Source: Minisyncoccota bacterium
Lineage (GTDB): Bacteria; Patescibacteriota; Minisyncoccia; UBA6257; UBA9933
Direction: 5' to 3'
NCBI GenBank assembly: GCA_041653755.1
Contig: JBAZEU010000001.1
Span: 129,398 to 193,397 of the forward strand
Length of the DNA: 64,000 nt
The translations under genes were made by a program, and so were the position numbers. The notes under the pieces are model-generated. The model had not been told where the DNA came from. It was given only the letters and a program-made list of their open reading frames with translations, and made no database searches. Shown here one piece after another: positions 3,333 to 64,000 of the stretch (position 1 is its first letter; each line of letters starts with the position of its first letter).

Positions 3333-5408
3333 ATGATTAAGTTATTCGAAAGAAGAAATTATTTGAAAGTATTATCAACCACTGTTCTTTTGGCGGCTGT
3401 TTTAATGCCGGCTGGCATAATTCAGGCAGCTTCATTTACGGCCGATAAACCGACATTAAGGGTTTCTAATTATACAGATCATCCGAATTCTAATTCTGAT
3501 TGGTTTTCTTCTGTTTCTGCCGATGCTGGGGACATTATAAGTTTCAATATTTATTATCATAACAGTTCTAACGAAGCTGCAAATCAAACAAGAGTAAAAT
3601 TAAATTTGCCTTCAGGGCAATTTACCAGCGGTTCTATTTCGGCCACTGTCTCTGCTCAAGATGCTAACCAGATGAATGGTTCGGTATCTGTTTCGTTGAG
3701 CTCTAGTCAAGCACTTACTTTGAGATCAGGAGAAATTTTCTGGTATAAAAACGGCAATGTTGATTATAGTCAATCTCAGTCGCTTCCTTCTGGCCAGAAT
3801 GGCAGTGAAATAATTTCTGGTTCGGGAATTAACTTGGGTAACATTCCGGCCGGAGATCGTGGACAAGTGGTTGTTAGGGTTCAAGTCGGCAGTAATTCTT
3901 CCGGTTCCGCTCCGGTAGTCAACACAAATTCAGCTTATTCAATTTATCAAAATTCAGCTTATTTAAGCGGCAATGTTGATCCGAACAACAGTAATACTGA
4001 TTTTTGGTTCGAGTATGGCACAAATAGTTCTTTGGGTAGTACAGTTAATTTTCAATCGATTGGATCGGGAGACAGTTCAATAAATGAAAGTTATTATCTT
4101 TCTGGTCTTCAATCGAATACAACTTATTATTATCGAGCTGTTGCGAGAAACCAATATGGTACAAATTATGGAAGCATTTTAAATTTCTACACTCAATCAG
4201 GCTCTAATAATAATTCTTCCGCCCCTACTGTTTTTACCAATTCCGCCACTTCGATAACTTATAACTCCGCAGTGTTAAACGGATCAATTGATGCGAATGG
4301 AAGTTATACGAACGCTTGGTTCGAATACGGCACTTCGCAATCATTCGGATATACAACTGGTTCTCAAAGCGTAGGAAGCTCTAACTATTCAAACGATTAT
4401 TCTTCTTACATTTCTAATCTTTCTCCTAACACAACTTATCATTATCGAGCTGTTGCATCCAATAGCTATGGCACAAATTATGGAGGGACATTGACGTTCT
4501 ATACCAACAGTTCTGGTCAGATTTATTATTCTAACCAGCCGACTGTTACAACCGTAAACGCTTCGCCCGTTTATCAAAATTCTGCTTTAGTAAATGGTTC
4601 TGTCAATCCTAACGGCGGTTATACAACTGCGTGGTTTCAGTGGGGCACTAATAATAATTTAGGGAATACCACTGTTTCTCAATCAGTCGGTTCCGGAACA
4701 AACTTTACAAATAGCGTAGCCGCTTTGACGGGACTTTCTGCGAACACAACTTATTATTATCGGGCAGTGGCCTCTAATAATTCGGGCACGGTCTACGGAA
4801 ACATTTTGAGTTTTAACACTCAAGCTACGACCCCGGTTGTTTACCAATATACTCAACCGCAAGTGATTTATGTTTCTAACGCGGTTAAAACTGCATTGCC
4901 TTCGTTAGTGCTTTTGATCTCTAATGCCGACAGAGAAACAGCGATCGCTGGAGGTGAACTGCATTATGTTGTGGTTTATAAGAATTTAAGTCAGCAAAAA
5001 TTAACAGACGTTGTGTTAAAAGTTATTTTTCCGTTAGAAGTTAATTATGTTAGCTCAAATCCAAAAGCGATTTCTCTTGAAGGGAATACTATTACCTATC
5101 GAGTTGGGACTTTAGACCCAGACGAAGAGGGATCTATGGATGTTGAATTTGCGGTAAAAAACTCCGTACGTAACAATGACTCACTGATTTTCTCTGCGAC
5201 ATTAGATTACCAAGATAAAAATAACGCTCTTCATTCTGACAATACTTTCCTTTCAGTATCAGCAAGCAACAGACCAAGCTTGCTTGCTTCTTTGTTCAGC
5301 ATTGGCGGATTTGGTGGCATACTCTTTTGGGGATTGATTTTAGGAATTATTATCGGTTTCCTAATCTACTGGTTTGGGTTAAGAAGAAGGTTTGTTAAAA
5401 GTTACTGA
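3333..5408 (+). CDS. large cell-surface protein with four Fn3-like repeats, a DUF11-like domain and a C-terminal transmembrane anchor
   Basis: Signal peptide; four ~100-aa repeats ending ...NTTYYYRAVA.N.YGTNYG; C-terminal hydrophobic segment followed by RRRF. Confidence 0.7.
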   Translation: MIKLFERRNYLKVLSTTVLLAAVLMPAGIIQAASFTADKPTLRVSNYTDHPNSNSDWFSSVSADAGDIISFNIYYHNSSNEAANQTRVKLNLPSGQFTSGSISATVSAQDANQMNGSVSVSLSSSQALTLRSGEIFWYKNGNVDYSQSQSLPSGQNGSEIISGSGINLGNIPAGDRGQVVVRVQVGSNSSGSAPVVNTNSAYSIYQNSAYLSGNVDPNNSNTDFWFEYGTNSSLGSTVNFQSIGSGDSSINESYYLSGLQSNTTYYYRAVARNQYGTNYGSILNFYTQSGSNNNSSAPTVFTNSATSITYNSAVLNGSIDANGSYTNAWFEYGTSQSFGYTTGSQSVGSSNYSNDYSSYISNLSPNTTYHYRAVASNSYGTNYGGTLTFYTNSSGQIYYSNQPTVTTVNASPVYQNSALVNGSVNPNGGYTTAWFQWGTNNNLGNTTVSQSVGSGTNFTNSVAALTGLSANTTYYYRAVASNNSGTVYGNILSFNTQATTPVVYQYTQPQVIYVSNAVKTALPSLVLLISNADRETAIAGGELHYVVVYKNLSQQKLTDVVLKVIFPLEVNYVSSNPKAISLEGNTITYRVGTLDPDEEGSMDVEFAVKNSVRNNDSLIFSATLDYQDKNNALHSDNTFLSVSASNRPSLLASLFSIGGFGGILFWGLILGIIIGFLIYWFGLRRRFVKSY

Positions 5409-5483: not shown

Positions 5484-6362
5484 ATGGATATAAAAGAACA
5501 AAATAATGGTTATGAAAAAATTGGTCCGACAGCTTGGGGCGTATCATATTCTCGTTCTCTCTCCGATATTAAATATGCCGCAGAGATTTTTCATGAATTG
5601 GAACTCAGTATAAAAACAACTAGTAAAGAAGAAGTTGAGTACTTTGAGGCATCCAAAAAATCTAAGCTTGCACCGCAATTCGAGGCAAGACAAAAACTTA
5701 TAGACCGTTTAATCGAAGAAAATAAGAATGATCAGATTTTAGAAATTGCTGCTGGTTTTTCTTCTCGTGGATTGGCTATGACCGAAAAAAATGATTCTTT
5801 GAAATATGTCGAGGTTGATTTGCCGTATATAGCAGAACATAAGAAACAAATTCTTCAGGTATTGTCTTCTAAATACGGAATTAATCCGAGTGTAAATCTG
5901 CGCATAGAAAGTGGCGACGCACTTGATTTGAATTCTTTATTTGAATCTGTAAAATATTTTGAACAGAAGCCGATTTCTGTTGTTAACGAAGGTCTCTTAC
6001 GATATTTAAGTTTTGACCAAAAATCTATTGTAGCCAAAAATGTTCATGCATTGTTAGAGAAATTTGGGGGTGTTTGGATTACGTCAGACATCACTCTAAG
6101 AAGAATACTTACATATGAGCAAGAAAGAGAAAGTAATCGAGAAAGAGTTTTAGCATTGTCAGGAATTAATGTAGTGGAGAATAGTTTTGATAATGCAGAG
6201 GCGGCAAAAATATTTTTCGAAAATCTGGGATTTAGTGTTGAGAAGCATGGCTTTCCAGAAGTTATAGATCAATTGGTATCTCCTGAAAAATTGGGCTTGT
6301 CTATGGGCAAGGTTCAGGAAATGATCAATAATCTCGTTGTTTTTGTCATGAGGGTCAGATGA
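5484..6362 (+). CDS. class I SAM-dependent methyltransferase (LCM / TIGR00027-like)
   Basis: N-terminal GPTAWGVSYSRS...; LEIAAGFSSRG resembles the L.GAG.DTR motif. Confidence 0.5.
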   Translation: MDIKEQNNGYEKIGPTAWGVSYSRSLSDIKYAAEIFHELELSIKTTSKEEVEYFEASKKSKLAPQFEARQKLIDRLIEENKNDQILEIAAGFSSRGLAMTEKNDSLKYVEVDLPYIAEHKKQILQVLSSKYGINPSVNLRIESGDALDLNSLFESVKYFEQKPISVVNEGLLRYLSFDQKSIVAKNVHALLEKFGGVWITSDITLRRILTYEQERESNRERVLALSGINVVENSFDNAEAAKIFFENLGFSVEKHGFPEVIDQLVSPEKLGLSMGKVQEMINNLVVFVMRVR

Positions 6363-59020: not shown

Positions 59021-59056
59021 GGTTAATTAAGAATTAAGAATGCAGAATTAAGAAAG
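59021..59056. repeat. left terminal array of AGAATTA heptads (TAATTA-AGAATTA-AGAATGC-AGAATTA-AGAAAG) preceded by hairpin TTAACC-TGTAG-GGTTAA
   Basis: Inverted partner at 59399..59434. Confidence 0.55.
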
Positions 59057-59059
59057 ATT

Positions 59060-59401
59060 ATGGAAAAGGAAATTTATAAAAGATCCTGCGATTTTGCTAT
59101 TTCAGTGATAAGATTTTTGAAGAAAATTAACATAGATTCGGCAAATAGGGTAATAGCAGAGCAGCTAATTAGATCAATAACTTCAATATCGGCTAATCTT
59201 GCAGAAGGAAGCGCAGCTGTTTCTAAGAAAGAATTTATTAACTATGTCGGTATCGCAAGAAAATCGGCGGTGGAAACAGTGCATTGGCTGAAATTTTCGC
59301 ATCAAATTATTAATAGGGAAGAGATCAAGGAATTTATAAACGAAGGTAGTCAGATAGTAAGCATTTTATCAAAAATAGTTATTAATTCTAAAAACCGCTA
59401 A
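59060..59401 (+). CDS. four-helix-bundle protein (TIGR02436; 23S rRNA intervening-sequence protein family)
   Basis: ISANLAEGS...KEFINYVGIARKSAVETVHWL signature. Confidence 0.7.
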   Translation: MEKEIYKRSCDFAISVIRFLKKINIDSANRVIAEQLIRSITSISANLAEGSAAVSKKEFINYVGIARKSAVETVHWLKFSHQIINREEIKEFINEGSQIVSILSKIVINSKNR

Positions 59402-59434
59402 TTCTGAATTCTTAATTTTGAATTCTTAATTAGC
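59399..59434. repeat. right terminal inverted heptad array (TAATTCTGAATTCTTAATTTTGAATTCTTAATTAGC) followed by hairpin AGCAAAAT-TAT-ATTTTGCT
   Basis: Reverse complement is GCTAATTA-AGAATTC-AAAATTA-AGAATTC-AGAATTA. Confidence 0.55.
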
Positions 59435-59450
59435 AAAATTATATTTTGCT

Positions 59451-60578
59451 ATGAAGGATTATTACAAGGTTCTTGGCGTTGATAAAAATTCTTCGCCAGA
59501 AGATATAAAAAAGGCCTATCGAAAATTGGCTCATCAGTTTCATCCGCATAAAGCCGGTAAAGATGAGAAAAAATTTAAAGAGTTAAACGAAAAACTCAAG
59601 GAAATAAACGAGGCCTATAATATTCTTTCTAACGCCGAGAAAAAAGCGCAATATGACAAATTCGGACAGGTCTTTTCCGCCCAAGGCGGACCAGCCTCGG
59701 GCTGGGAAGGCGTACCATTTTCTGATTTTGGTTTTTCCGCCGATGGCGGATTTGATGTCGGAGGAGTATCTGATTTAGGCGATATTTTCAACGCTATTTT
59801 TGAAGGAATGGGCGTTAGGCAGAAAAGACGAACCTATAAACGCGGTTCAGATCTGGAATTTACGCAGGAAGTTTCCTTAGAGGAATCATTCAGGGGCATT
59901 GAAAAAACTTTAAAATTTAAAACATTTTTGAAATGCAGCAAATGCAAAGGCAAGGGCCACGACGAAAAAGCCGGTTTTGAAAAATGTACGGTTTGCGGCG
60001 GCAGAGGGGAAATTAGGGAAACAAAAAATACTTTTTTTGGAAGTTTTGCCCAGGTAAAGACGTGTGAAAAATGTTTTGGCACAGGACAAGTTCCGAATAA
60101 AGTTTGCGAAATCTGCAAAGGAGCCGGAAGAATCGCCGGAGAAAGAGAAGTAAAAATTCAAATTCTTCCGGGCGTCAGAGACGGACAACTTATCAAAATT
60201 GCTGGAATGGGTGAAGCCGGTGAAAGACAAACCGCAGAAGGAGATTTGTATGTTAGAATTAAAGTCAGACCGCATTCGGTTTTTGAAAGAGCAGGGGATA
60301 ATTTAAAAATTAAAAAAGACGTTAAGTTGGTTGATTTATTATTATCAAAAAAGTTAGAGATTCCAACTATTTCTGGAAACAAGCTGTCTATTGAAATTCC
60401 GGCTGGATTTGATATAAAACAAGATTTGAGGATAGGCGGAGAAGGAATGCCAATTTTTGGAAGTTATGGAAGAGGGGATTTGTTGGTTGAGTTGATGGTA
60501 AAGACGCCGAGAAAATTAAACGAAAAAACAAAGAAGATTCTAGAAGATCTTGGAAAAACAATGGACAATGAACGATAA
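59451..60578 (+). CDS. dnaJ: molecular chaperone DnaJ
   Basis: J domain (HPHK), G/F region, four CxxCxGxG zinc-finger repeats. Confidence 0.9.
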   Translation: MKDYYKVLGVDKNSSPEDIKKAYRKLAHQFHPHKAGKDEKKFKELNEKLKEINEAYNILSNAEKKAQYDKFGQVFSAQGGPASGWEGVPFSDFGFSADGGFDVGGVSDLGDIFNAIFEGMGVRQKRRTYKRGSDLEFTQEVSLEESFRGIEKTLKFKTFLKCSKCKGKGHDEKAGFEKCTVCGGRGEIRETKNTFFGSFAQVKTCEKCFGTGQVPNKVCEICKGAGRIAGEREVKIQILPGVRDGQLIKIAGMGEAGERQTAEGDLYVRIKVRPHSVFERAGDNLKIKKDVKLVDLLLSKKLEIPTISGNKLSIEIPAGFDIKQDLRIGGEGMPIFGSYGRGDLLVELMVKTPRKLNEKTKKILEDLGKTMDNER

Positions 60579-60581
60579 ACT

Positions 60582-60953
60582 ATGAACAAAGCGATTTTCA
60601 GATTTTTAGAGTGGCAAGTATATAAAGATGCAAAGAGTTTTAGACAAAAGGTAAAATCTTTAATTAATAAGAAATTCCCAAAGGAAGAAAGGTATAAACT
60701 TATTGATCAGATAGAAAGAGCTGCAAATTCAGTATGTTTGAATATTGCTGAAGGATCTAATAAACTTTCCGATATTGAATTAAGCCATTATCTTAATATC
60801 GCTTCTACTTCTATAGAGGAAGTTATTTCTGGGCTTGATTTGGCTAAAGATGATGGTTATATTACAGAAAAGGAATTTGAAGATTTTTGTCAGATGGCAG
60901 AAGAAGTTAGTAAACAACTTGTCGCCTTCGGCAAATTTGCACGCAATAGATAG
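60582..60953 (+). CDS. four-helix-bundle protein (TIGR02436 family), second paralog
   Basis: LNIAEGSNK...SHYLNIASTSIEEV; 3-nt gap after dnaJ. Confidence 0.65.
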   Translation: MNKAIFRFLEWQVYKDAKSFRQKVKSLINKKFPKEERYKLIDQIERAANSVCLNIAEGSNKLSDIELSHYLNIASTSIEEVISGLDLAKDDGYITEKEFEDFCQMAEEVSKQLVAFGKFARNR

Positions 60954-61011
60954 AAGTAGTTTGTTTCGTGTTCATCGTTCATCGTTTATATAGTTTTTGG
61001 TCGTAAAAAAC

Positions 61012-61084
61012 GCCCCGTTAGCTCAGTTGGTAGAGCAGCTCCCTTTTAAGGAGAAGGTCGAAGGTTCGAATCCTTCACGGGGTA
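61012..61084 (+). tRNA. tRNA-Lys (anticodon UUU)
   Basis: GCCCCGTTAGCTCAGTTGGTAGAGC...anticodon loop CTTTTAA...GGTTCGAATCC; acceptor 3' strand ACGGGGT. Confidence 0.8.
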
Positions 61085-61130
61085 CAAGGTCTGTAAAATA
61101 GTACACAAGAGCAGGTTTACCAGTCTTGGA
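61080..61130 (+). repeat. 47-bp direct repeat, copy 1, beginning in the tRNA-Lys 3' end (attL-like)
   Basis: GGTACAAGGTCTGTAAAATAGTACACAAGAGCAGGTTTACCAGTCTTG; one mismatch versus 62253..62302. Confidence 0.6.
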
Positions 61131-61171
61131 CCATCCTTGTTAAATTTTTGTAAATCTATATAATTATAAGT

Positions 61172-61555
61172 ATGAAATATAATTTTGCTCTTTTGTGTGA
61201 TAATGCTTTTATCCCTAGTCAGGGAGGTAAGCCTAATTTTACGGGTGTTTTTGGCGGTATAACAGCGTCTTTAGCTCCTGCCGTACAAAAGGATCTCTAT
61301 ATTGTTTTCAATTTTTCTCCAGAAGACGTAGAGCTTCATAAATTGGTCATAAGCATAAAGTCTCCTTCAAAAGGAGAGATTTATACTTACGAGGTTAAGC
61401 TTGGACCAGCAATTAGCAAAAATGAAGCGCTAGGCCATATTCTCCGTGTCTCTAATTTGAAACTAGAGGAAATCGGGGTTCATTCTATAGATTTTCTTAT
61501 CGATGGCAATTTATTACATACCTTAGATTTTAATTTTTCGGTTAATAAAAAATAG
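61172..61555 (+). CDS. hypothetical protein
   Basis: Own promoter-like TTGTTA...TATAAT upstream. Confidence 0.45.
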   Translation: MKYNFALLCDNAFIPSQGGKPNFTGVFGGITASLAPAVQKDLYIVFNFSPEDVELHKLVISIKSPSKGEIYTYEVKLGPAISKNEALGHILRVSNLKLEEIGVHSIDFLIDGNLLHTLDFNFSVNKK

Positions 61556-61568
61556 AAACTAATCAAAA

Positions 61569-61769
61569 ATGACAAACACAATAGCAGCCCTAAAATTTGA
61601 ATTAGTGGAGTGTAGGTCTTCTAGTTCAACAAAGTTAGGCGAAACGAGTGATACTTATGGCAATTTTAGTGATGACTTTACGCCATTTTTGTTGCTCGGA
61701 GCGCAAGATATCTTGGATGAAATAGGGCCTATTTCAAAAGAAGATTATGATTATTACGAGAATTTATAA
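61569..61769 (+). CDS. putative antitoxin (small acidic protein upstream of the MazF-like toxin)
   Basis: 66 aa; stop overlaps the toxin start (ATAATG). Confidence 0.4.
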   Translation: MTNTIAALKFELVECRSSSSTKLGETSDTYGNFSDDFTPFLLLGAQDILDEIGPISKEDYDYYENL

Positions 61770-62122
61770 TGCAGAAAGGGGATCTAAAATTCGGAGATAT
61801 AGCTTGGACAGATTTTGATCCGAGTATCGGTCATGAATTCCAGGGGAGGAGGCCAGCGTTAATTATTGAATCAGATATTCAACTTAACAAATCAAATCTC
61901 GTTACAGTCGTGCCGATTACTGGGAATACACAGAACAATTTGTTAACTGATGATATTTTAATTTTCACTGACGCATGTAACAATCTTAGAAACAATTCTG
62001 TGATTAAAATGTATTGTATAACATCATTTGACTACCTTCGTTTCCGTAAAAAAATTGGGAAGATTAATGCTGCAACTTCAACGAAAGTAAAATTTTATCT
62101 CCGAAAACATTTTGATCTATAA
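61769..62122 (+). CDS. PemK/MazF-family toxin (mRNA interferase-like)
   Basis: GDIAWTDFDPSIGHEFQGRRPALIIESD...LVTVVPITGN matches the MazF/PemK core. Confidence 0.65.
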   Translation: MQKGDLKFGDIAWTDFDPSIGHEFQGRRPALIIESDIQLNKSNLVTVVPITGNTQNNLLTDDILIFTDACNNLRNNSVIKMYCITSFDYLRFRKKIGKINAATSTKVKFYLRKHFDL

Positions 62123-62252
62123 AAAAGTATTATTTCGATAGAATTTCTGAGTAAGTTTGTCTCAAATTTTATAAATTCAAGCCATACTGGATTGTAACCG
62201 TCGCCAAGTTTTCAATTCTTCTATCATCCGGTTCCAATCAAGTCGCAAGTGA

Positions 62253-62302
62253 GGTACAAGGTCTGTAAAATAGCACACAAGAGCAGGTTTACCAGTCTTG
62301 AC
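62253..62302 (+). repeat. 47-bp direct repeat, copy 2 (attR-like), preceded by a degenerate tRNA T-arm/acceptor remnant
   Basis: GGTACAAGGTCTGTAAAATAGCACACAAGAGCAGGTTTACCAGTCTTG; upstream CCGGTTCCAATCAAGTCGCAAGTGAGGTACA resembles GGTTCGAATCC...GGGGTACA. Confidence 0.6.
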
Positions 62303-62346
62303 AATGAAGTTAACAAAAATCGCCAACGAGGCGGTTTTTTGGTAGA

Positions 62347-63066
62347 ATGAAACCTATGAAATCTACTCACGTAAAATTTGTTATTGACAAAAAATTAGAC
62401 ATAGAAAATCATCTGATTGGTTTAAGGTCTTACAAACAGAAGCTTCATTCTTATTATAACCAAAAAAAGAATAGTAAGAATGAAAGATACGAAAAGCTAT
62501 TAAAGCTTTCAGGCAAAAAAAGAAAAGATTTTATTAGAAAAGAACTAGTTGATGTTTATTCTCCTAAAAACAAAAAGAAGCTCGAAGAAATAAAAAATGA
62601 CGCACAAAAATATTGGGATAAAATCGAGAAAGACTTTTTTTCGAGGATCCAAAAGGTTTTTGGAAAACCATTCCCTTATCAAACGGTTAGAGGCGTTTTT
62701 TCAACAGCTAACAGGTTTGGCTATAACACGGGTAAGAGATGGTTCGCTACCAGTATAGATAGAAATAAGTTTTTTGCCATTGAAACAGCAATGCATGAAT
62801 TAACTCATTTTGTTTTTCATTATTATTTTTGGAAACAATGCGAAAAATACGGATTGAGCTGGAAACAAATCTGGAATATAAAAGAAGCATTTACTGTTCT
62901 ATTAAACTTAGAATTTGCCGATCTTAGATTGAGGTTGGATTATGGTTATCCAGAACACAAAGAAATAAGAAATTTTATAGCTAAAGAATGGAAAAAGGAT
63001 AAAAACTTTGAAAAAGTTTTAGATAAGACCTGTAAATTTGTCGCAAGTAATAAAAATAATAGATGA
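62347..63066 (+). CDS. hypothetical protein with HExxH motif (AMHELTHF), possibly a metallopeptidase
   Basis: Single HExxH; otherwise no recognisable domain. Confidence 0.4.
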   Translation: MKPMKSTHVKFVIDKKLDIENHLIGLRSYKQKLHSYYNQKKNSKNERYEKLLKLSGKKRKDFIRKELVDVYSPKNKKKLEEIKNDAQKYWDKIEKDFFSRIQKVFGKPFPYQTVRGVFSTANRFGYNTGKRWFATSIDRNKFFAIETAMHELTHFVFHYYFWKQCEKYGLSWKQIWNIKEAFTVLLNLEFADLRLRLDYGYPEHKEIRNFIAKEWKKDKNFEKVLDKTCKFVASNKNNR

Positions 63067-63207
63067 ATAGTTTCTAACGTCGTCCAGCCAGCGGTACGGA
63101 GTTCTGAAGGGTTTTAACTAAGATTGACGAAATAAAGCGTCTATTGTAGAGTAGCGATAGCTAAAAACTATCGTAGTTTTGTTTCACAACTAAAAAAGGA
63201 GAAGAAG

Positions 63208-63498
63208 ATGTCAACCAAGATTGATAATGCTCAGCTTACATTGGATCTTTTGAAAAATCTTTCAAAAGAGGAATTGAATCAAATTATGGCCCAAGCTGAA
63301 TTAAATTTTCTGGAGAAAAGAATTGTCTGGCTAAGGATTGGTTTAGAAGATAAAATTCCTCGCTCTTTTAAAGAAATAACCAAAGAAATTGGCCTTGGCA
63401 TGGAAACAATTTTTAAGATTGAAATGAAGACCTTGAGAAAAATAAGAACATCTCTAATCTCAGAAAGGAACCAAAATAAGGATATTGAGAAAAATTAA
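63208..63498 (+). CDS. small sigma-70 region-4-like HTH protein
   Basis: RSFKEITKEIGLGMETIFKIEMKTLRKIR parallels RpoD region 4 ([26 protein letters not shown]). Confidence 0.5.
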   Translation: MSTKIDNAQLTLDLLKNLSKEELNQIMAQAELNFLEKRIVWLRIGLEDKIPRSFKEITKEIGLGMETIFKIEMKTLRKIRTSLISERNQNKDIEKN

Positions 63499-63517
63499 GA
63501 AAACAAAAGGGGATATT

Positions 63518-63991
63518 ATGAAAAAAGTGGCATTCTTGGACAGAGATGGGGCGTTGATCTATGAACCGCAAGATACGTTTCAAGTTGATTCAGTTGACCA
63601 ACTAAAAATTTTGCCTGGCGTTGTAGAGAATCTTCAGCGTCTGCAACGACTCGGGTATCAACTGGTGATGGTCACTAATCAAGATGGTCTCGGAACTTCA
63701 AGTAATCCTCAGAAAAATTTTGAAGCTGTGCAAAATAAGCTCTTTGAGCTTTTGCAACAACACGGCATCAAACTTGATCAGGTATTTGTCTGCCCACATT
63801 TTCCTCAGGATAACTGTCTGTGTCGTAAACCAAAAACGGGACTCGTTGCAGGTTCCCTGGAAGAAGAGCCGATAGACCACGATGCGTCTCTTATGGTGGG
63901 GGATCGAGAAACAGATCGTCAATTTGCTAAGAATATCGGGGTTCGATTCTTGAAGATGGAAACGAACGGACACTTTCCCAATGTTGTTTAG
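63518..63991 (+). CDS. HAD-IIIA phosphatase (GmhB / histidinol-phosphatase-like)
   Basis: AFLDRDGALIYEP (DxDG), VTNQ, C.CRKPK, MVGDRETD; GC-rich relative to the rest of the window. Start at MKKVAFLDRDG; the track ORF starts at 63485. Confidence 0.75.
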   Translation: MKKVAFLDRDGALIYEPQDTFQVDSVDQLKILPGVVENLQRLQRLGYQLVMVTNQDGLGTSSNPQKNFEAVQNKLFELLQQHGIKLDQVFVCPHFPQDNCLCRKPKTGLVAGSLEEEPIDHDASLMVGDRETDRQFAKNIGVRFLKMETNGHFPNVV

Positions 63992-64000
63992 AGAATATTC

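Follow-up and report, generated by a model that had tools for sequence, protein, structure and literature searches.

A MazF-family toxin-antitoxin islet flanked by 48-bp direct repeats at tRNA-Lys in a Candidatus Paceibacterota genome, and a possible recombinase-less route of insertion

We examined a 64-kb stretch of DNA (the window) from a metagenome-assembled genome of Candidatus Paceibacterota (Candidate Phyla Radiation (CPR)/Patescibacteria), and within it the region at 61012-62302 of the forward strand, where an intact tRNA-Lys gene is followed by a small islet that carries a putative toxin-antitoxin (TA) module between two copies of a direct repeat (Table 1). The islet holds three small genes, as an earlier reading made from the letters alone (the sequence-only reading) had stated: a 127-aa protein, of no family in that reading but matching DUF6941, a 66-aa putative antitoxin and a PemK/MazF-family toxin (proteins MFA5386259-61, locus tags WC297_01085-95). 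None of these three open reading frames (ORFs), the only ones between the repeats, is a recombinase by Pfam, so the absence of an integrase noted by the same reading also stands. That reading had gone on to take the arrangement for a classic attL/attR signature left when an element integrates site-specifically into a tRNA gene, an interpretation that the evidence described below does not support as it was put.

The two repeat copies are real, start 1172 nt apart and differ by one mismatch (T61102 vs C62274 in a repeat search of the window), as had been described, except that the repeat is 48 rather than 47 nt long. With up to 3 mismatches allowed, the 48-nt sequence occurs twice in the 64 kb against 0.00 occurrences expected by chance from shuffles, and its longest exact run of 26 nt compares with a maximum of 16 among 200 shuffles of the region. 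The edges are sharp, the 30-nt flanks of both copies being identical at 7/30 positions on each side, a random level; the repeat is a sharply bounded block rather than the surviving part of a once longer duplication that has decayed. No third copy was found up to window-equivalent position 65468. Both copies, together with the islet, are present in an independent Logan assembly (L001; 100% match over the overlap, 61051-64000), and an ENA contig (L002) matches 61151-62494 at 100%. Because these independent assemblies match the window at 100%, the repeat is not an assembly artefact.

The relation of the repeat to the tRNA gene is slighter than it first appears. The tRNA-Lys gene, which has no encoded CCA, reads GGTTCGAATCCTTCACGGGGTACAAGGTCTG... 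across its 3' half and trailer, and the first repeat copy does start in the tRNA 3' end, as claimed, but it takes in only 4 nt of the gene, the terminal GGTA; its other 44 nt are trailer, so that the block cannot rebuild a tRNA. A degenerate T-arm/acceptor remnant had also been proposed to precede the second copy. When the tRNA is aligned locally to the 130 nt that precede copy 2, the best match is a T-arm-like 10-mer, GGTTCCAATC, at 62230-62239, and this match is at chance level (score 15 vs 13.1 +/- 2.1 for shuffles, with 401/2000 shuffles as good). The ends of the repeat are weakly palindromic (CAAGGTCTGTAAA...TTTACCAGTCTTG); despite this weak palindrome, the repeat has no significant fold (z-score -0.33 vs shuffles), and the tRNA was the one Rfam match in the region, with none for the repeat; on these grounds a structured RNA, a terminator or an attC-like hairpin was rejected. 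A common dispersed repeat, the alternative that the sequence-only reading had itself named, was rejected as well: there are two copies in the window and none in the other loci fetched, the 44-nt trailer sequence being absent from 1.16 Mb of related loci and its 21-nt core from IMG/VR.

Table 1. Features of the tRNA-Lys region and islet in the 64-kb window.
Feature	Position	Strand	Basis or remark
Intact tRNA-Lys (anticodon UUU)	61012..61084	+	ARAGORN (61012-61085, ttt); Rfam RF00005, 71.7 bits, full length
Direct repeat copy 1, 48 nt	61081..61128	+	4 nt of tRNA plus 44 nt of tRNA trailer
Islet segment between repeats, 1,124 bp	61129-62252		Three closely packed same-strand ORFs
Promoter-like site TTGTTA-16-TATAAT	61137..61164	+	Consensus match 10/12, joint best in region; putative function
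DUF6941 protein, 127 aa, first gene of islet operon	61172..61555	+	Pfam PF22091, 6.3e-15
Predicted 66-aa antitoxin ORF	61569..61769	+	Clade tail directly upstream of MazF; motif ...DILDEIGPISKEDYDYYENL
PemK/MazF-family toxin, 117 aa	61769..62122	+	Pfam PF02452, 8.3e-21, 74.7 bits (cut-off 23.1), residues 7-114/117
Right tail of islet, non-coding, 130 nt	62123..62252	+	Holds chance T-arm-like string 62230-62239
Direct repeat copy 2, 48 nt	62253..62300	+	47/48 identical to copy 1; C at 62274
Terminator-like hairpin AAAAAUCGCC-AACGA-GGCGGUUUUUU	62315..62341	+	Minimum-free-energy structure of 62257-62345, z-score -2.4; putative role
TG-TAGAAT promoter-like site for next gene	62320-62348		Promoter scan
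Host flank protein, 239 aa (236 aa from ATG 62356), HExxH motif	62347..63066	+	ORF list

The toxin assignment of the sequence-only reading is well supported by homology. In addition to its Pfam match, the 117-aa protein has partial NCBIfam matches to MazF/ChpB, matches a PHROG MazF-like family at 5e-18 and, among PDB structures, matches MazF6, MazF9 and EndoA, the best being MazF6 (5hk0, 4e-07). It is accordingly identified as a PemK/MazF-family endoribonuclease toxin, with toxicity and neutralisation as predictions from these matches. The profile searches that had been proposed for the 66-aa and 117-aa proteins thus found MazF/PemK for the longer one but neither MazE nor any other family for the shorter, which has no Pfam or NCBIfam match at E <= 1; the 66-aa ORF shares 1 nt of its stop codon with the start of MazF (TAATG). 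The 127-aa DUF6941 protein has no PDB, PADLOC or PHROG match, and a single-sequence AlphaFold2 model of it is all-beta but poor (pLDDT 55).

Promoter-like and terminator-like signals lie near the ends of the islet. The promoter-like site is just inside the left end, and since only 7 nt separate its -10 box from the ATG at 61172, the islet mRNA would be leaderless or very short-leadered. No terminator-like site follows MazF inside the unit, whose 130-nt right tail has no blastn homology to other loci and no significant fold (z-score -0.77). The hairpin beyond the second repeat copy is probably the original tRNA-Lys terminator, displaced by 1172 nt and now ending the islet transcript as well. 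Taking one unit out leaves, in order, tRNA-Lys, a 44-nt trailer, a hairpin terminator, a promoter and a gene, and this restored order would be expected of an insertion. In GC content (0.33-0.37) the islet is no different from its flanks, and no inverted repeat joins its ends. A search of window ORFs of at least 100 aa, by motif heuristic, found no tyrosine-recombinase (box-II) motif and Pfam found none either; the 1.47 kb past the end of the window likewise hold no recombinase. A phage or viral origin was rejected, IMG/VR giving only two weak partial MazF matches and PADLOC none.

At 90% identity, each of the three islet proteins is a singleton in a set of ~15 billion; the closest MazF is 66% identical to that of the window. 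Exact-protein look-ups with the 239-aa flank protein, MazF and the IVP flank returned window-identical contigs only. The 239-aa flank protein has no Pfam domain and 68 homologs, the few named ones belonging to Pacebacteria or unclassified bacteria; its nearest non-self homologs are ~70% identical, and the contexts of the three that were examined are unrelated and not syntenic. An empty tRNA-Lys site, which the sequence-only reading had suggested seeking, was thus not found among the relatives reached. One of the homologs, at L003:5870-6705, lies directly after tRNA-Trp, as the window gene follows the tRNA-Lys region.

We aligned 31 members of the MazF clade and, searching with this alignment, collected 60 loci in GTDB species genomes and a further 80 in JGI metagenomes (n=140). 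The C-terminal ~30 residues of the 66-aa protein lie directly upstream of MazF in 95/140 loci (tblastn), and on the strength of this recurrence the 66-aa protein is the predicted cognate antitoxin of MazF, in line with what had been supposed. The tail has the approximate motif [GS][AG][RK]DIL[KD]x[IL]GPISKE[DE]YDYYENL. Its usual carrier is a 225-300-aa protein with an N-terminal HTH_3+Panacea (SocA-like) or LexA_DNA_bind+Peptidase_S24 arrangement, while some tail proteins have a helix-turn-helix domain only (HTH_3 alone) or are short with N-termini of unknown type. Such modular antitoxins are seen at L017:5159-5998, L112:534-1394, L110:5255-6013, L033:1002-1745 and L084:5666-5998. The window antitoxin has no DNA-binding domain, and no other intact antitoxin in the loci examined is as short. 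DUF6941 occurs beside the module in 0/140 other loci and is therefore ruled out as a fixed third component. By blastn, nucleotide homology of the islet to other loci is limited to the antitoxin tail and MazF (~61670-62128), which makes the cassette a mosaic built on a conserved core of tail and toxin, and no conserved cassette ends were found among the related loci.

All loci were then searched for direct repeats with one copy upstream and one downstream of the module. We reduced the set to 109 clusters, non-redundant at 95% identity, of which 83 were testable, and counted repeats of at least 24 nt and at least 88% identity that bracket the module with the downstream copy no more than 250 nt from the MazF stop. 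Bracketing repeats were present in 12/83 testable clusters vs 4/218 control positions (0/59, 1/62, 2/52 and 1/45 at four control offsets in the same loci; Fisher p = 6.8e-5, odds ratio 9). They are 27-138 nt long, with sharp edges, and all differ in sequence; in the L033/L120/L170 family the duplicated block is an entire 101-aa gene (~310 nt). Usually the repeat is made of host sequence, for example the promoter together with the 5' part of the gene that follows (L012, L110, L120, L144, L037) or, in L114, an intergenic terminator region, and most of the repeats have no relation to tRNA genes. The start of the downstream copy varies between points within MazF (L144, L017) and +171 nt past its stop, a range that includes the 130 nt of the window. 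Two repeat-flanked cases lie outside CPR, in Fibrella (L054) and Desulfatiglandales (L069). That cassette ends are not fixed argues against a recombinase that recognises them, and unrelated repeats of variable length at non-tRNA sites are not a pattern that a site-specific recombinase predicts.

Several of these loci have features of their own. At L144:3484-4222 (also L141 and L145), MazF is cut at codon 73, where the downstream 59-nt repeat copy begins; the product set there is an antitoxin and a dead toxin, and a repeat junction need not respect the end of a gene. L037 has three copies of a 46-57-nt repeat that includes a ribosome-binding site and an ORF start (815-871, 1863-1908 and 3514-3570), separating a 310-aa ORF from a LexA-type antitoxin with MazF, an order that resembles either an array or repeated insertion at one target. 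In L017, a 32-nt fragment of the MazF 3' end (4840-4871 vs 6319-6350, 31/32 identical) lies 1.5 kb upstream, just before the cassette, and could be a leftover of a tandem or replaced cassette.

For one locus, L012, an empty site could be shown. Its repeat comprises the 44 nt that open an amino-acid permease gene, and the copies are 44/44 identical. We searched for this permease and fetched the contigs of its closest relatives (78-81% identity). The 44-nt target is present once in L154/L155 and L157. Copy 1 in L012 continues native upstream sequence (L012 2714-2795 aligns to L154 3466-3544), copy 2 runs on into native coding sequence, and the 1,962 bp between them, which encode an SDH-type protease, an 88-aa antitoxin and MazF and also hold a terminator and an outward promoter, are missing from the relatives. 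On this alignment, L012 bears the signature of insertion with a 44-bp target duplication. The same three-gene variant, comprising an SDH/ClpP-like serine protease, a short tail-only antitoxin and MazF, is found in two lineages (L012:3112-4705 and L075:1-848); one possibility is that the protease targets the antitoxin in trans, in the way that the S24 peptidase domain, where fused, might work in cis.

By analogy with these relatives, we propose that the tRNA-Lys islet is a recombinase-less addiction cassette that would have entered just 3' of tRNA-Lys and duplicated 48 bp of its target, an interpretation that we rate at about an even chance. The window itself speaks for it through the sharp edges of the repeat, the overlap of only 4 nt with the tRNA, the layout restored when one unit is taken out, the lack of a recombinase in the islet, among the window ORFs (motif heuristic) and over the following 1.47 kb, the lack of a third copy up to 65468, and the absence of the trailer sequence from the 1.16 Mb of related loci and of its core from IMG/VR. 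As for the further suggestion of the sequence-only reading, that this is a decayed or satellite-type integrative element retaining its addiction module, the part that describes an inserted TA islet with no recombinase of its own is retained, while an integrative origin is possible but not favoured. Several considerations weigh against our proposal. The target-duplication origin rests, for the window, on analogy, because neither an empty tRNA-Lys site nor a close relative was found. The 3' end of a tRNA gene is the textbook site of integrase-mediated islands, and the genome seen comprises 64 kb plus 1.5 kb, with which an integrase in trans or a third copy further downstream would be compatible. 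In most other loci the downstream copy begins 0-60 nt after the MazF stop, compared with 130 nt here. The history of such repeats can also be more complex than one insertion: L075 is colinear with L012 (protease-antitoxin-MazF-permease) at ~75% nucleotide identity, so the linkage between the TA module and the permease may be older than the perfect 44-bp repeat of L012, and gene conversion or later recombination with an empty allele may have been involved there. Finally, we know of no established mechanism for long target duplication, even for restriction-modification systems.

Under our proposal, an incoming 1,124-bp operon encoding the DUF6941 protein, the short antitoxin and MazF, with its own promoter, would have landed directly 3' of tRNA-Lys(UUU), so that 48 bp of host sequence, namely the 4 nt that end the tRNA plus 44 nt of trailer, were duplicated and the tRNA stayed intact. 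The route would probably have been illegitimate or homology-facilitated recombination of an incoming fragment, not a site-specific integrase. The cassette would then be transcribed from its own promoter, probably as a leaderless mRNA that probably ends at the displaced tRNA terminator. MazF would be held in check by the presumably labile 66-aa antitoxin via its conserved C-terminal tail; since this antitoxin lacks the DNA-binding and self-cleaving domains of most of its relatives, autoregulation is perhaps absent or supplied by another factor. A role for the DUF6941 protein in the module is possible but unsupported. RecA-type recombination between the 48-bp copies could release the unit as a 1,172-bp circle, yet cells losing the cassette would suffer from stable MazF, and such post-segregational stabilisation would make loss costly and keep the cassette in place. 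Costly loss would in turn explain why repeat-bracketed TA fragments are kept more often than other DNA.

The closest published parallel comes from restriction-modification systems. Insertion with long target duplication was described in 2000 (Gene 259:99) and surveyed by Furuta, Abe and Kobayashi in 2010 (PMC2853133), whose criteria were a complete addiction module, an insert of <20 kb, no mobility gene and a repeat of >30 bp. The islet consists of a 1,124-bp insert with a toxin, an antitoxin, one DUF gene and no mobility gene, and its 48-bp repeat is present in two copies only within the searchable 64 kb. Among the restriction-modification examples, those of Haemophilus influenzae have unique 46-bp repeats, which reach 2 or 15 bp into the 3' end of a gene; repeats elsewhere are up to ~420 bp long, and most of the hosts are naturally competent (PMC2853133). 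The likeness extends from the small addiction module without a mobility gene, bounded by a unique host-sequence repeat of >30 bp, to several details. Repeat length and sequence vary between events in both groups (46 bp to ~420 bp for restriction-modification systems, 27 to ~310 bp in the MazF clade); a few bp of the 3' end of a gene can fall within the repeat, both there and at tRNA-Lys; and the empty site holds the target once, as it does for L012 in the MazF clade. The same survey sets apart true site-specific events, which have 45-49-bp repeats resembling a tRNA 3' terminus and an integrase homolog in the insert (PMC2853133), and the window has neither feature. The cargo and hosts are different, being a type II MazEF TA operon in CPR/Patescibacteria, and an RNase toxin offers no equivalent of the double-strand-break activity that has been proposed in the case of restriction-modification systems. 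A review of the parallels between restriction-modification and TA systems ascribes the long-target-duplication mode to the former only (PMC3874152), and our full-text literature search found no report of it for MazEF.

An alternative that we consider rather unlikely is that the islet is a decayed integrative element resembling a cis-mobilizable element (CIME), with the 48-bp copies as attL and attR. A tyrosine or serine recombinase, encoded elsewhere or on a lost part of the element, would have brought it in or would still be moving it, and would recognise an att core in the 3' end and trailer of tRNA-Lys. By definition, a CIME has lost its integration and transfer genes and keeps attL and attR (PMC6323972), and the islet resembles CIMEs and decayed tRNA islands in its direct-repeat flanks, the want of integrase and transfer genes, its place at a tRNA 3' end and its addiction module. 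In further support of this, foreign-looking singleton genes lie between the copies, one of which touches the tRNA; 48 bp falls within the published range of tRNA att identity blocks (45-49 bp); the repeat ends are weakly palindromic; and several relatives have TA modules adjoining the 3' ends of tRNA-Ala, tRNA-Glu and tRNA-Pro genes. Against these points, an identity block with 4 nt of tRNA restores nothing, where an integrase island would be expected to carry an integrase gene and a substantial 3' part of the tRNA with which to rebuild the gene; the supposed tRNA remnant is a chance match and the repeat hairpin is not significant. No integrase was seen within the islet, elsewhere in the window (by motif heuristic) or over the 1.47 kb that follow, and neither a cognate integrase-bearing element nor a shared att site was found, the trailer sequence being absent from the related loci and its core from IMG/VR. 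Among the relatives, those adjoining tRNA genes have no repeats, and those flanked by repeats, which belong to the same TA clade, lie at non-tRNA sites with unrelated repeat sequences and variable ends.

A second alternative is Campbell-type homologous integration, by RecA, of a circle that already carried a copy of the 48-bp trailer, for example one excised from a sibling genome, in which case the repeats would be the homology segment rather than a product of the insertion. The shortest repeats of the clade, at 27-28 nt, are near the minimum reported for RecA-dependent recombination in E. coli. The three copies around two units in L037 would fit repeated integration at one site, and in L012 an "empty-type" promoter precedes copy 1 whereas a "TA-linked" promoter, as in L075, precedes copy 2. 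Such a route would cover spread among siblings but not first arrival at many unrelated sites, and no circular form or donor is known; on present data it is indistinguishable from target duplication, and we regard it as improbable. That there was no mobility at all, the genes being old residents and the repeat a local trailer duplication related to RNA processing or termination, or an assembly artefact, is very improbable, since the flank-like GC content of the islet is outweighed by the agreement of three independent assemblies at 100%, a repeat without significant structure or Rfam match, singleton genes without synteny in relatives and the enrichment of the repeat-bracket pattern around the MazF clade.

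The module and its surroundings also differ from other familiar systems. As in MazEF/PemIK, a full-length PemK/MazF toxin is preceded by a co-oriented antitoxin gene that is translationally coupled to it by the 1-nt overlap; unlike MazEF/PemIK, the antitoxin is of neither the MazE/AbrB (SpoVT) nor the ribbon-helix-helix type but belongs to a clade-specific family defined by the tail GPISKEDYDYYENL, lacks a DNA-binding domain and is accompanied by an extra DUF6941 gene that leads the operon. Integron cassettes are likewise small units of 1-3 genes, often TA, separated by ~50-140-nt repeats, and the three copies in a row in L037 recall them. Here, in contrast, there is no intI, no attC architecture, no GTTRRRY core and no array in the window, and the repeats are host gene 5' ends or trailers, unlike the imperfect palindromes of integron cassettes. 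Transposons, insertion sequences and miniature inverted-repeat transposable elements are set apart by the absence of terminal inverted repeats and by a duplication that, at 48 bp here and from 27 to 138 bp or more across loci, is neither short nor fixed.

By itself the islet is unremarkable among small TA islets, and the comparative result matters more. We put forward, tentatively and as a possibility, that this MazEF clade would be a self-standing mobile addiction cassette in CPR/Patescibacteria and a few other bacteria, spreading without a recombinase of its own via long, variable target duplications, of which the tRNA-Lys islet would be one fresh example. If true, this would point to a general route by which post-segregational-killing modules enter small genomes, possibly tied to DNA uptake and homology-facilitated illegitimate recombination, and would offer a recombinase-independent means of gene gain in genomes with few conventional mobile elements. 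The pattern would extend insertion with long target duplication from restriction-modification to classical TA systems, and with TA cargo a mechanism tied to DNA cleavage by a restriction enzyme would become unlikely. The recurrence of long, variable duplications around a MazEF clade in CPR is thus a modestly novel extension of a known, mechanistically unexplained mode of mobility. A practical caution also follows, that a repeat touching a tRNA 3' end should not be taken for an att site unless the tRNA content of the repeat has been checked.

Other associations with tRNA genes were observed within the clade. In several loci a convergent tRNA gene adjoins the module, which ends 40-110 nt short of the tRNA 3' end; the genes are tRNA-Ala (L017, L028, L088, L096/L098), tRNA-Glu (L099/L100) and tRNA-Pro (L056), and no flanking repeats were found at these tRNA-adjacent relatives (L017 has the internal MazF 3'-end fragment only). 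In four of the tRNA-Ala loci the right flank is conserved and the left flank varies; the conserved flank encodes an 80-aa membrane protein, next to a long ORF, not family-typed, with a shared ...NPLNYI ending. This looks like a hot spot distinct from the repeat-flanked cases. One identical MazF (P0070) has a right flank at least 99.7% identical and at least 2 different left flanks (L159 vs L167:1-711 and L168:1-361), with breakpoints in or beside polA. As these are short contigs, the different contexts are suggestive only, and reflect either real rearrangements beside the TA module or chimeras.

Two further observations concern the host genomes. Boxes resembling -10 elements occur ~7 nt before start codons both in the window (61159-61172 and 62343-62356) and in L012 (2735-2751 and 4741-4757), which suggests that leaderless or near-leaderless mRNAs are made in these CPR genomes from the islet operon as well as from host genes. 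Upstream of the islet, the window also has two genes of PF05635 ("23S rRNA intervening sequence protein", a four-helix bundle), at 59060-59401 and 60582-60953, whose neighbours are dnaK, dnaJ and tRNA-Lys. Imperfect inverted repeats of short motifs tightly bracket both genes (31 nt at 84% and 26 nt at 77%), giving units that extend over 59024-59432 and 60565-60985 and look like stem-loop cassettes of the intervening-sequence type outside rRNA.

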